A DNA stretch of 64,000 bases, from sequence record MK327931.1, one strand, 5' to 3'. Below the pieces are notes generated by a model, which worked only from the letters and a program-made list of their open reading frames with translations, was not told the DNA's origin and searched no databases. Position 1 is the stretch's first letter, and every line of letters begins with the position of its first letter. Source of the DNA: Escherichia phage vB_EcoM_G17. Position numbers and translations under genes: made by a program. Positions 40,239 to 43,019 of this stretch are shown one piece after another.

Positions 40239-40610
40239 TTATGACATACGCTTATTATGAATGGAATTATGAATGGATTTTAAATAATTATATAATTTTA
40301 TCAATCCACTACCAGTAGCTACAAACAGTAGTGCTGTTGGTATCATACATCCAAACATGGTTATTAATTCATGTATTTCCATACCATCACTATTTGGTCC
40401 CACATCAAATATAACAACCAAAACAACACCTAAAATGCTTAGACAATAATATCCCATAAAGACCATAAAAGTGATATATCCGGCACTTGATTTAATATTA
40501 CATAACATATTATACACTGGATTAATACAGAAGAAGTATAATAACCATACCAGTGTTCCAGTACTGAACATAATAATTGAAATAATGGAAAATATCTCAC
40601 GGTAACTCAT
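40239..40610 (-). CDS. small membrane protein (123 aa)
   Basis: Hydrophobic segments; last gene of 8-gene membrane-protein operon. Confidence 0.55.
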   Translation of the reverse strand: MSYREIFSIISIIMFSTGTLVWLLYFFCINPVYNMLCNIKSSAGYITFMVFMGYYCLSILGVVLVVIFDVGPNSDGMEIHELITMFGCMIPTALLFVATGSGLIKLYNYLKSIHNSIHNKRMS

Positions 40611-40611
40611 A

Positions 40612-40974
40612 TTATTTCCTCATACCCAAACGTTGGTGGATTTCAGAGATCTTTATATACAATAGTACCACAAGGTGCAGTACTAAACAACATATAATTA
40701 CGGCTAATACCAATGAACATATCATAAGACCGAAGGTTATTGTATTCAAAGAGGATGTGAACAGTCCAATTATTAATACAATAAAACCAAAATTGAATAC
40801 TGTACCCAACACAGTATATGCTGGACTATATCTCTTTTGGATTACATCATATATATTTGATAATGGTCGCTTATGGAAGTACTTCCCAATGCACACGAAT
40901 GCATTCAGTGAGAAGATAAATGTATACGCCATTACTAGTAATTGACCAACGAAAGATAATTCTATCCCGTTCAT
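40612..40974 (-). CDS. small membrane protein (120 aa)
   Basis: Track ORF 40612..41037 trimmed to MNGIELSF to avoid overlap. Confidence 0.5.
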   Translation of the reverse strand: MNGIELSFVGQLLVMAYTFIFSLNAFVCIGKYFHKRPLSNIYDVIQKRYSPAYTVLGTVFNFGFIVLIIGLFTSSLNTITFGLMICSLVLAVIICCLVLHLVVLLYIKISEIHQRLGMRK

Positions 40975-40975
40975 A

Positions 40976-41344
40976 CTAACCTCGTTTACGTTTTTTAATT
41001 GTACTGTGCATCTTTTCGAAATAGGGAACCAAAACATATTGAACAGTTTGCCAGATAACCATTAGATTATGCACTGCACCACCAAGGATACCAAACACTA
41101 GAACAATAATTGCCATAATAGGATCACCGTCTACCATACCCCATTTAAAGATATGTAAAATCCAAGCAATGACTAGACAAAATAAACTAAGCCAATACGT
41201 AATGAAAAATCCGGCTTGTAATTCATAATCATCAGCAATTTCATCGTATACCGTTTCTAAAAATGATACACAAAAGAATTTACCAATTATAACCACAGTA
41301 CTAATAAACAGCATAGCAGTTAAGATAATAAGAGCAATTTCCAT
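40976..41344 (-). CDS. small membrane protein (122 aa)
   Basis: Hydrophobic; abutting neighbours. Confidence 0.55.
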   Translation of the reverse strand: MEIALIILTAMLFISTVVIIGKFFCVSFLETVYDEIADDYELQAGFFITYWLSLFCLVIAWILHIFKWGMVDGDPIMAIIVLVFGILGGAVHNLMVIWQTVQYVLVPYFEKMHSTIKKRKRG

Positions 41345-41658
41345 TACATCCCTCGTTTACGCTTTTGATTGCGTCTAAATTCTGTTAGTCCACGGCTAAT
41401 CGGCGGCATCAGACTACATAAAAAAGTAACAGTTGTTGGTAGTAACATCAAGTCAATCATTGCTGTATTATCAGGTGGATCACATACCAAATAATACAAA
41501 CAAGTAATACTAATAATGGTTGACCCAATAAAAGGAATACAAAATTCTTTTATCTGTTTTTCAACATAATCAAACATCTTCAGTACAAATAAAAATCCAA
41601 CCCAACACATAATGAAATAGAATGAATACAACGTGTAAATCAATGTTACGATATCCAT
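41344..41658 (-). CDS. small membrane protein (104 aa)
   Basis: Hydrophobic; 1-nt overlaps with neighbours. Confidence 0.55.
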   Translation of the reverse strand: MDIVTLIYTLYSFYFIMCWVGFLFVLKMFDYVEKQIKEFCIPFIGSTIISITCLYYLVCDPPDNTAMIDLMLLPTTVTFLCSLMPPISRGLTEFRRNQKRKRGM

Positions 41659-41996
41659 TAGTACCTCGCATCAGGAACTTTAGCACGTAATTTATGAACG
41701 ACTGGGAACAACAACAAACTTACATATGCAATAGTTGAACCCCAATAGAATACTAATACAATTGGTTCACCATTAGAACGGAAACCTCTACTAATCATTG
41801 AGTAGTGAATAATAGGCATAATCATCGCCATACCAAACCATGCGTGTAATTTTAATTGCAGCATGTTATCAGCGATGAATACTGAAATTGGTCGTTTGAA
41901 GAACCACATCAGAAAGTAGAATCCAGCACTAATAATATAGTACAAAGTACTAACTTTCATATACCACGGCAGTAAATCAATAAAGTACTCCATCAT
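41658..41996 (-). CDS. small membrane protein (112 aa)
   Basis: Hydrophobic. Confidence 0.55.
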   Translation of the reverse strand: MMEYFIDLLPWYMKVSTLYYIISAGFYFLMWFFKRPISVFIADNMLQLKLHAWFGMAMIMPIIHYSMISRGFRSNGEPIVLVFYWGSTIAYVSLLLFPVVHKLRAKVPDARY

Positions 41997-42340
41997 TCCT
42001 CCGGTATCTTATTTCGAAGTTCAATCATAACACAACAAATTTTAATGGTCAATATAAAAGTTAAACATATCATCCCAAGTGTGCCGTAAACTGCGGAAAA
42101 AGCTGGTAGTACCTTTCCTGTGAGTGTTGCTACAATACATGCAATCAATGTTGATGCAAACAACGATTGATTAATGACAGAATTCATAAAATCTTCACCA
42201 TTACGTTTATAGAATTGTCGTTTAAAATACCATCCTAGAAACATAACTACCCAAAATGATACATAAGTTGTTAGAATAATCCCTGCAAGTGAATGTGCAA
42301 CTGGACTACTCCTTAAAAACTCAAGATAAGCTTCAAACAT
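41993..42340 (-). CDS. small membrane protein (115 aa)
   Basis: Hydrophobic; ATGA overlap. Confidence 0.55.
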   Translation of the reverse strand: MFEAYLEFLRSSPVAHSLAGIILTTYVSFWVVMFLGWYFKRQFYKRNGEDFMNSVINQSLFASTLIACIVATLTGKVLPAFSAVYGTLGMICLTFILTIKICCVMIELRNKIPEE

Positions 42341-42690
42341 TAGAAGTCTCCGCGAATTTTATCTCTACCATGAATAATGAGATGGATTAAGTATACAACT
42401 AACCAAATGAACAACCCAAAGAATACAATATATTGTGAGATTGAGTTCAAGTGAGGATTAGCACAATAAATTAAGTGTGCCATAAGACCAACAATTGCAA
42501 ACAAACCTTGAACAAGTGTGTAAAGAACTAGTGATGAATTCCTCACTGGATACAGTTTAAAAACAATTTTCTTTTTAAAATACCATAGTACTACAACTAG
42601 TGCATGATAAAAGAAAAAACCAAACAGATAAATCAAAGTAATACTAATCATTGTATCTGATTTAAAAAATTCTAACATTAGAATCCCCAT
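42340..42690 (-). CDS. small membrane protein (116 aa), paralog of 42678..43019
   Basis: ITLIYLFGFFFYHALVVVLWYFKKKIVFKLYP vs ITLIYMFVFLFYHSIVISLWYFKRKVVFKLYS. Confidence 0.6.
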   Translation of the reverse strand: MGILMLEFFKSDTMISITLIYLFGFFFYHALVVVLWYFKKKIVFKLYPVRNSSLVLYTLVQGLFAIVGLMAHLIYCANPHLNSISQYIVFFGLFIWLVVYLIHLIIHGRDKIRGDF

Positions 42691-43019
42691 TTAAAGTTAT
42701 TACGAGCTTTAATAATAAAGTACATAGTACACACCAATAACCAGACGATTAGTCCTGAAAACACAACATATTGTGTAATGTGTGGTGTGTTATCAATTTG
42801 TAACATGTAAATCACATATGTCATCACACCAAATAAAATAAACCCACCTTGTATAATGCTATATACAACTAAGAATACATTATCATACGAATACAATTTA
42901 AAAACAACTTTCCTTTTAAAATACCAAAGACTAATTACAATTGAATGATAAAACAAGAATACAAACATGTATATCAGTGTAATACCAAGCATTATATTAG
43001 ATTCAAAAAACTCACGCAT
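42678..43019 (-). CDS. small membrane protein (113 aa), paralog of 42340..42690
   Basis: See paralog; first gene of operon. Confidence 0.6.
   Translation of the reverse strand: MREFFESNIMLGITLIYMFVFLFYHSIVISLWYFKRKVVFKLYSYDNVFLVVYSIIQGGFILFGVMTYVIYMLQIDNTPHITQYVVFSGLIVWLLVCTMYFIIKARNNFKWGF

Follow-up and report, generated by a model that had tools for sequence, protein, structure and literature searches.

A tandem array of small, predicted three-helix membrane proteins in Escherichia phage vB_EcoM_G17 and its family in RaK2-like jumbo phages

Genes of the array and their predicted topology

The stretch of Escherichia phage vB_EcoM_G17 DNA analysed here (record MK327931.1; 64,000 nucleotides, hereafter the window) carries on its minus strand, at 40239–43019, an array of eight back-to-back open reading frames (ORFs) of 104–123 amino acids (aa), which occupy the interval fully. 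The genes are numbered after the record of Escherichia phage Sharanji (OR545507.1), a 350-kb Asteriusvirus of the 121Q/PBECO4 group that is 100% identical over 40000–43100; in roughly 30 genomes of related coliphages and Salmonella phages, the same interval is 86–99% identical. All eight genes, gp120–gp127, carry the label 'hypothetical protein' in the Sharanji record. An earlier note, made from the sequence alone, had described them as eight consecutive hydrophobic proteins in a tandem set of small multi-pass membrane-protein paralogs, and this structural reading is borne out. The eight genes form one tightly packed operon of paralogous inner-membrane proteins, and together with three genes of a second cassette at 49024–50059 (gp140–gp142) they can be assigned to one family. 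Both the anatomy and the family assignment are held with high confidence.

The lengths given in Table 1 are those from homology-supported starts. Two ORFs in the program-made list are longer merely through upstream in-frame starts, at 42690 and 41037. The latter start gives the form entered in the Sharanji record as gp121, a 141-aa protein that overlaps gp122 by 62 nucleotides (nt), while the orthologs elsewhere are annotated with 120 aa. Overlapping starts and stops had been reported for the array as a whole; as read from the sequence they are found at five of the seven junctions (TAATG at four, ATGA/ATGATG at one), while gaps of 1–2 nt separate the genes at the other two. Junctions of this tightness imply translational coupling.

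Table 1. Positions of the array, the second cassette and associated features in the window (RBS, ribosome-binding site; TM, transmembrane helix; HMM, hidden Markov model; S1–S7 and SB, subfamilies)
Feature	Position	Strand	Remarks
gp127, 113 aa, subfamily S1 extra copy	42678..43019	-	array gene 1; predicted 3-TM; S1 HMM 2e-48
gp126, 112 aa, subfamily S1	42340..42678	-	start 42678, TAATG overlap with gp127 stop
gp125, 115 aa, subfamily S2	41993..42340	-	WYFKR after TM1; LRNKIPEE tail
gp124, 111 aa, subfamily S3	41658..41993	-	invariant FLMWFFKR and LR.K[VI]PD.R motifs
gp123, 104 aa, subfamily S4	41344..41658	-	S2-S4 hhalign 93%; duplicated in JNE01
gp122, 122 aa, subfamily S5	40976..41344	-	IGKFFCV and KKRKRG tail
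gp121, 120 aa, subfamily S6	40612..40974	-	homology-supported start 40974, GAGG upstream
gp120, 123 aa, subfamily S7	40239..40610	-	last gene of the array; 40% identical to Muenster gp560
Hairpin, perfect 10-bp stem, CCAGTACT-N4-AGTACTGG	40210..40233	-	right after gp120 stop; AAGGAG site and gp119 start follow
Sigma-70-like promoter, TTGACA-17-TACTAT	43049..43077	-	65-nt gap just upstream of gp127; consensus match only, 10/12; GGAG RBS after
gp128, 256-aa P-loop/AAA ATPase, T4 NrdC.10 homolog	43085..43855	-	upstream of the array in three phage genera
Near-consensus sigma-70 promoter, TTGACT-18-TATAAT, extended -10 TG	43884..43913	-	upstream of the ATPase gene
gp142, 112 aa, B1, second cassette	49721..50059	-	hhalign SB-S2 94%, SB-S1 90%, SB-S7 87%
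gp141, 113 aa, B2, second cassette	49370..49711	-	BLASTP to B1 and B3; family HMM match
gp140, 114 aa, B3, second cassette	49024..49368	-	BLASTP to B2; family HMM match

The eight array proteins have grand average of hydropathy (GRAVY) values of 0.57–1.05, and a hydropathy scan places about three hydrophobic segments in each. In the aromatic-rich gp124 this crude scan finds one segment only; its ortholog in Klebsiella phage Muenster, gp557, is annotated by TMHMM with three transmembrane domains (TMDs), N-out and C-in. When lysine plus arginine and aspartate plus glutamate are summed over the members with three TMDs, the ratios are 5/12 for the N-terminus, 31/17 for loop 1, 2/12 for loop 2 and 41/13 for the C-tail. 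By the positive-inside rule, this charge distribution indicates an N-out/C-in orientation with a periplasmic N-terminus and a basic cytoplasmic C-tail, the same orientation that the depositors of Muenster recorded for most of the orthologs. The AlphaFold2 (AF2) model of gp125, at a predicted local distance difference test score (pLDDT) of 73, has a short N-terminal helix followed by three long helices. The three genes of the second cassette also encode hydrophobic three-helix proteins, and these are mutual paralogs. A length of 100–130 aa, three hydrophobic helices, an acidic or neutral N-terminus and loop 2, and a basic loop 1 and C-tail are found throughout the family.

One family and its evolution

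The only obvious paralog pair within the array by BLASTP is gp127 and gp126 (47% identity, E 2e-34), in agreement with the earlier remark that at least two of the proteins are obvious paralogs; the remaining array pairs give weak alignments, which are often full-length. The three genes of the second cassette, likewise recognized before as a set of paralogs, are linked in the same way (B1–B2 E 1e-9; B2–B3 E 2e-5). The motif that had been assigned to them, (F/Y)FK(Y/F)..(F/Y)NR(M/F)YP, is exact in B2 and B3 and only loosely preserved in B1 (FFRY..YERIYY). Deeper relationships emerge when subfamily alignments, composed of orthologs from four phages and database hits, are compared by hhalign. The probability is 97% for S2–S3 (E 4e-11 over 105 columns), 92% for S5–S6 and 94% for S5–S7, and the links of S2 with S4 and of SB with S2, S1 and S7 are of similar strength (Table 1), while reversed-alignment controls peak at 2.4%. 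Subfamily HMMs also cross-match other subfamilies, at best with 2.5e-8, and among all the window's ORFs of 50 aa or more the family HMMs match exactly eleven, which are the 8+3 genes on their annotated strand and in their annotated frame. The family shares two recurring motifs, [WLF][FY]F[KC] where TM1 ends on the cytoplasmic side and [RH]x[KN][IL](P/K) just after TM3, the latter for example as LRNKIPNR in distant metagenomic members.

The hhalign links, the HMM cross-hits and the shared motifs together indicate that all 8+3 genes belong to a single family, so that the paralogy proposed earlier is supported by alignment and extends to both sets. The hydrophobic singletons at 45803, 47270, 57769, 58596, 58980 and 63615, which had been listed beside them, do exist, but none is matched by any family HMM at E<0.01 and they do not belong to the family. 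The term 'tandemly duplicated' suits gp127 and gp126 and is misleading for the others, which are ancient copies, kept in order as seven distinct subfamilies in two genera.

The common origin of these proteins is not apparent from current classifications. The PHROGs database splits them among 19454, 19046, 27396, 33258, 26405, 27618 and 19285, all tiny orphan clusters of 'unknown function', and phrog_16874, labelled 'membrane protein', likewise contains array-family proteins; none of these entries records the family's common origin, conserved order or motifs. The array is not described in the papers on Sharanji, phAPEC6, CBB and fEgEco12 or in one comparative study of jumbo phages, and the Sharanji paper makes no mention of membrane proteins, paralogs or holins. 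The family is unnamed and, as far as searched, has never been described as a unit.

The array genes are under purifying selection. Against phages ph0011 and vB_Ec-M-J, the ratio of nonsynonymous to synonymous substitution rates (dN/dS) is 0.09–0.40 for gp120–gp127, with a single value of 0.74 at very low divergence. These data bear on the proposal that the ORFs are chance hydrophobic frames or decayed pseudogenes, which gains some colour from the many spurious hydrophobic ORFs that AT-rich genomes yield, several of them in other frames here. Since orthologs with intact frames occur in three genera, the genes have ribosome-binding sites and coupled junctions, and the HMMs match the annotated frame and strand only, the probability of this proposal is close to nil, and conservation together with dN/dS effectively refutes it.

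The family seems to be confined to RaK2-like jumbo phages. With a profile built from its eleven proteins in the window, 26 clusters are retrieved from a database of 5.8 billion proteins, and an exhaustive scan of 1.84 billion proteins (E<=0.001) yields 28 representatives only, mostly with near-full-length matches and nearly all of 99–127 aa (two are shorter, 89 and 56 aa). No relatives were found in 185,579 GTDB species genomes. A search with the S3 sub-alignment finds 121Q and RaK2 only in IMG/VR, six metagenome loci and none of the GTDB genomes. By tblastn, the family is present in all Asteriusvirus records and, at 28% identity, in the Klebsiella Alcyoneusvirus members RaK2, K64-1 and Muenster; the full-length match of gp126 to Muenster gp556 and to its RaK2 ortholog has this identity. 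Overall, the array is present in 44 of 44 related phage records. The S6 ortholog of PBECO4 is intact, although its record does not annotate it, and the phAPEC6 record leaves a matching stretch without a gene. Notes on array and ATPase genes of ph0011 that name 'Phi92_gp233' and 'Phi92_gp231' had raised the possibility of homologs in phage phi92; this looks like an annotation-transfer artefact, as phi92 gp231 and gp233, with 121 and 75 aa, are neither the ATPase nor the 112-aa protein that the notes would imply, and phi92 yields no match to gp126 by tblastn.

Between Asteriusvirus and Alcyoneusvirus, the seven subfamilies have one-to-one orthologs in nearly the same order, the exception being a duplicated S2 pair ahead of S1 in Muenster and RaK2. 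Sharanji and Muenster subfamilies are 28–40% identical, while the adjacent ATPase is 71% identical. In Erwinia phage Hallingskeid, 10–11 members follow the same ATPase directly and one-to-one orthology with the seven subfamilies breaks down; a metagenomic relative has the ATPase and 12 members. Array copy number ranges across lineages from 7 to 12, and the duplicated subfamily differs. S1 is duplicated in Sharanji, 121Q and ph0011, an old duplication with a synonymous divergence (dS) of about 1.6 whose extra copy, gp127, is missing from PBECO4, vB_Ec-M-J and phAPEC6; S2 is duplicated in RaK2 and Muenster, and S4 in JNE01. The second, unlinked cassette comprises three genes in the window, a single one in Muenster and four in a JNE01-like contig. 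Along the array, identity varies in a mosaic manner, with gp123 97% and gp120 63% identical to their vB_Ec-M-J counterparts. In Salmonella phage SD-1_S14, a 311-kb isolate, S2 is cut to its last 27 codons (retrieved locus 3992–4081), while the other six members are intact, S1 lacking the first three profile positions. Provided that this assembly is correct, growth on Salmonella does not require S2. A short soluble ORF of 42 aa (MKPEQWII.DMRAMR...) is conserved within or beside the array in Muenster (5153–5281 of the retrieved locus), Hallingskeid (8613–8741) and one metagenomic contig (4614–4742), and has no counterpart in the window. Taken as a whole, the array can be regarded as an ancient multigene family confined to a phage clade and consisting of a seven-subfamily cassette with satellites.

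The ATPase encoded upstream of the array, gp128, is homologous to T4 NrdC.10, an AAA-type ATPase with no known function that about 1,300 phage records contain. In the RaK2-like jumbo phages the tandem array lies downstream of this NrdC.10-like ATPase; in Muenster, a 256-aa P-loop NTPase precedes eight 'putative membrane proteins'. In Aeromonas phage 31 and Vibrio phage V07, NrdC.10 has no family member beside it. The link between ATPase and array is specific to RaK2-like phages and, since T4-like phages have NrdC.10 without such membrane-protein neighbours, it may be plain synteny; RaK2-like genomes are syntenic overall. A 'Rosetta stone' idea, in which the N-terminal extension of about 75 aa in T4-type NrdC.10 would be a membrane domain, was rejected because the extension is soluble. 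The ATPase itself has an unusual pattern of identity, 71% to Muenster, a phage of a different genus, and 97% to vB_Ec-M-J and only 59% to the Asteriusvirus phages ph0011 and JNE01, while the array genes beside it are 73–90% identical to those of ph0011, which suggests two old alleles or exchange between genera.

The conserved gene order invites a possible interpretation that the earlier note did not consider and that is a serious rival to an exclusion role: a single hetero-oligomeric complex of the inner membrane, with the seven conserved paralogs as its subunits, would serve the phage's own cycle. It might be a channel, membrane scaffold or anchor and perhaps work together with the NrdC.10-like ATPase, and translational coupling would set the stoichiometry. 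An operon of subunits would look much like this set of seven subfamilies, whose one-to-one orthologs are ordered almost identically in two genera, and the ATPase-then-array layout recurs in Hallingskeid and in metagenomic contigs. The TAATG/ATGA junctions, the purifying selection and the presence of the array in all 44 related records point in the same direction, and the conserved cytoplasmic motifs could serve as a common docking surface. However, a fixed set of subunits fits poorly with a copy number of 7–12 in which the duplicated subfamily differs by lineage, with the truncated S2 of SD-1_S14, with the loss of one-to-one orthology in Hallingskeid and with a second unlinked cassette of 1–4 members, and the ATPase layout carries less weight given NrdC.10 homologs without such neighbours and overall genome synteny. 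A more specific version, a ring or channel of 3-TM subunits coupled to the NrdC.10-like ATPase and peculiar to RaK2-like jumbo phages, is doubtful; it could serve a step particular to a 350-kb phage, such as membrane anchoring, transport or control of the envelope over a long latent period.

Transcription and neighbouring genes

The promoter just upstream of gp127 lies in the gap between ATPase and array, and the near-consensus promoter upstream of the ATPase probably drives the array as well (Table 1). The latter is one of 41 sigma-70 matches in the window that have no more than a single mismatch, where shuffled sequence yields 4.2 ± 2.1; the match before gp127 is weaker. Of the 41, 35 are on the minus strand, which carries the array. 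The matches lie mainly on this strand at 1–20 kb and 43–64 kb, many are perfect TTGACA-16/17-TATAAT, and all six of the promoters checked between 43.9 and 48.4 kb sit in short intergenic gaps. These clusters mark two early-type transcription blocks in the window. A comparable arrangement has been described in phage CBB, where RpoD-like promoters cluster among short unknown genes in a presumed early host-takeover region (PMC5259590). From the promoter consensus, we infer that the array is expressed early by host RNA polymerase. At the other end of the array, the hairpin behind gp120 has a folding free energy of -18.4 kcal/mol (z -4.1) and is the only one of its kind in the window. A U-tract is lacking on the coding strand, and the structure may be a partial terminator or an element for RNA processing or stability. 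Further AGTACT pairs are present in the promoter spacer at 43050–43075 and at 40663–40685.

Class I holins of the lambda S type are proteins of about 100 aa with three TMDs, N-out/C-in topology and a charged cytoplasmic C-tail. The array proteins have this architecture (three TMDs, about 100 aa, the same orientation, a charged and basic C-tail), and the earlier note had counted holin or antiholin function among the candidates. The top weak fold matches of the gp125 model in BFVD include annotated holins, but at E>4. The genomic context of the array is, in contrast, unlike that of a holin gene. There are eight to twelve copies with early-type promoters, and they lie in a block dense in sigma-70 promoters, on the other strand from the adjacent genes for virion proteins. 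The array does not lie beside an endolysin gene: in Sharanji the lysozyme WNN14653 is about 240 genes away, and in 121Q the endolysin is gp532 and the array gp224–232, a separation also evident from published genomes (PMC11895373, PMC5259590). Moreover, 121Q gp532 has an N-terminal transmembrane domain, a trait that the CBB authors note in signal-arrest-release endolysins (PMC5259590). The holin annotated in fEgEco12 lies outside the array, and no array protein matches a holin family in Pfam or PHROG. The orthologs of array and ATPase in phAPEC6 (gp012c–018c) are absent from its virion proteome. Because of the promoter-dense block, the distance from the endolysin and the absence from a relative's virion proteome, a holin role is unlikely, and the whole class of holins, antiholins and lysis-timing proteins is left with a very slight chance.

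The surroundings of the array also bear on the proposal that its proteins modulate host inner-membrane proteins during early takeover, with one target per paralog; transporters, sensor kinases, FtsH, or the division or secretion machinery could be such targets. The operon would fit this role in lying in a promoter-rich early block full of small proteins of unknown function, its products are small and polytopic in the membrane, and orthologs kept across phages of related Enterobacterales hosts would fit conserved targets. The region is in addition rich in secreted proteins and lipoproteins, suggesting an envelope focus. Yet neither homology nor precedent ties the family to a host target, and divergence between genera is high for binders of conserved host partners, so that host modulation is unlikely. 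The minus-strand small proteins with N-terminal signal peptides are encoded at 51116–51535, 55528–55749, 57416–57766, 58158–58517, 61640–61915 and 62277–62528; two signal-peptide proteins have lipoprotein-like LTAC boxes, and weak paralogy (E 2e-5) links those at 57416 and 58158. On one metagenomic contig, a similar secreted protein is encoded beside members of the array family. Envelope-targeted proteins seem to be over-represented in the early block.

Several other neighbours deserve mention. On the plus strand, at about 20000–39077, lies a tandem array of at least ten RCC1-repeat paralogs of about 380 aa (gp108–gp117, the last copy at 37908–39077), whose orthologs in phAPEC6 (gp003–010) are virion proteins; an RCC1 block also flanks the array in Hallingskeid. 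Between the ATPase gene and the denV region, gp129 (43924–45042) encodes a 372-aa HNH/homing-endonuclease-like protein. At its position ph0011 has no gene, and A4 and JNE01 have different genes of other lengths, so gp129 is probably a mobile insertion. The minus-strand ORF at 45803–45997, encoding 64 hydrophobic aa with two helices, is unannotated in the Sharanji record and is likely a missed gene; EcMJ_560 of vB_Ec-M-J (198 bp) matches it by size and corresponding position. The gene at 50405–51079 was considered as a T7-like kinase, for which Pfam gave no confirmation at E<=1e-3.

Candidate role and comparison with known systems

Few phage genes are as poorly understood as those for small early membrane proteins. 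Of the functions listed in the earlier note, superinfection exclusion or interference with host membrane defences remains the most plausible candidate class for the array. The reading ranked first, tentatively and by analogy, is that the array is a battery of early inner-membrane exclusion or immunity factors. Host RNA polymerase would transcribe the operon early in infection, its products would insert into the host inner membrane, and each paralog would engage a different membrane-inserting protein through helix-helix contacts. These partners could be the tape-measure or ejection-protein channels of superinfecting phages, or pore-forming host abortive-infection effectors. This reading is placed ahead of the others because of the known precedents, divergence that is faster than that of the ATPase, the mosaicism, the changes in copy number and the one dispensable member.

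A number of observations weigh against it. The proteins show no homology to any characterised family, Imm, SieA and the colicin immunity proteins included. Seven subfamilies with one-to-one orthologs, in an almost unchanged order across two genera, look more like the subunits of a machine than a fast-turnover arsenal; dN/dS is below 1 throughout the array; and the array, present in every related genome examined, behaves as core rather than accessory. The residues conserved across the family are on the cytoplasmic face and not on the periplasmic side, where incoming phage proteins arrive, though they may be mere topology determinants. The timing of expression comes from promoter consensus only, and we know of no exclusion phenotype for RaK2-like phages.

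The solved cases among small early membrane proteins, T4 Imm and P22 SieA, control the entry of a second virus into an infected cell. As an exclusion or immunity battery, the array would shape the behaviour of jumbo phages of this kind in cocktails and against host defences and would provide a natural paralog series for mapping specificity; if its proteins form a multi-subunit complex, this would be a new phage-built membrane machine. The 8+3 genes have long been kept in three groups of giant phages infecting E. coli, Klebsiella and Erwinia, some isolates of which are proposed for therapy. Small early membrane proteins are unsurprising in a jumbo phage; a conserved paralog cassette is an unusually clean, small and clonable system. 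The current annotation, 'hypothetical protein' in seven or eight orphan PHROGs, hides that the array genes belong together.

Searches of Pfam, NCBIfam, PADLOC and PDB sequences, whether by individual protein or with the 34 aligned members together, gave no consistent match. None of the 34 members matched a Pfam family at E<=1, Imm_superinfect included, and among the PADLOC defence models only PycTM was hit, by one member at E 0.029, which does not place the family among known defence proteins. Nor does the window contain an Imm homolog, when queried with the Hallingskeid protein annotated as a superinfection immunity protein. By Foldseek against BFVD and the PDB, the sole significant match of the gp125 AF2 model is its own ortholog; this fold search is uninformative, since a three-helix membrane protein carries too little fold information.

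The comparison with known systems is therefore one of architecture and possible mode of action. Pore-forming-colicin immunity proteins are small polytopic inner-membrane proteins of about 110–180 aa with 3–4 TMDs. The array differs from them in topology and context and has no Pfam match to them, so that the likeness is an analogy only. They are proposed to block pore formation, and the analogy with phage exclusion was drawn by the authors of the T4 Imm study (bioRxiv 10.64898/2026.03.06.709160). P22 SieA, which blocks the ejection-protein conduit, occurs as sequence types that are mutually less than 30% identical (PMC10883804), a level of divergence similar to that of the array subfamilies. 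SieA is, however, the product of a single prophage-expressed gene without homology to the array, which is a multi-paralog operon of a strictly lytic jumbo phage. T4 Imm is a 9.3-kDa N-out inner-membrane protein that works within the membrane, where it binds the tape-measure protein of the incoming phage and blocks genome translocation (bioRxiv 10.64898/2026.03.06.709160). Like the array proteins it is a small phage protein of the inner membrane with a periplasmic N-terminus, but it is encoded by a single 83-aa gene and has another helix count, whereas the array comprises 8+3 paralogs of 104–123 aa with three predicted TMDs and their own motifs, and no sequence relationship between the two is detectable. 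HK97 gp15 can be grouped with T4 Imm as a functional analog of the role proposed for the array. In their resemblance to the array, Imm, SieA and the colicin immunity proteins thus offer a possible mode of action and not a family membership: with T4 Imm, HK97 gp15 and P22 SieA as models, and along the lines proposed for the colicin immunity proteins, each array protein may act by engaging a partner protein within the membrane.

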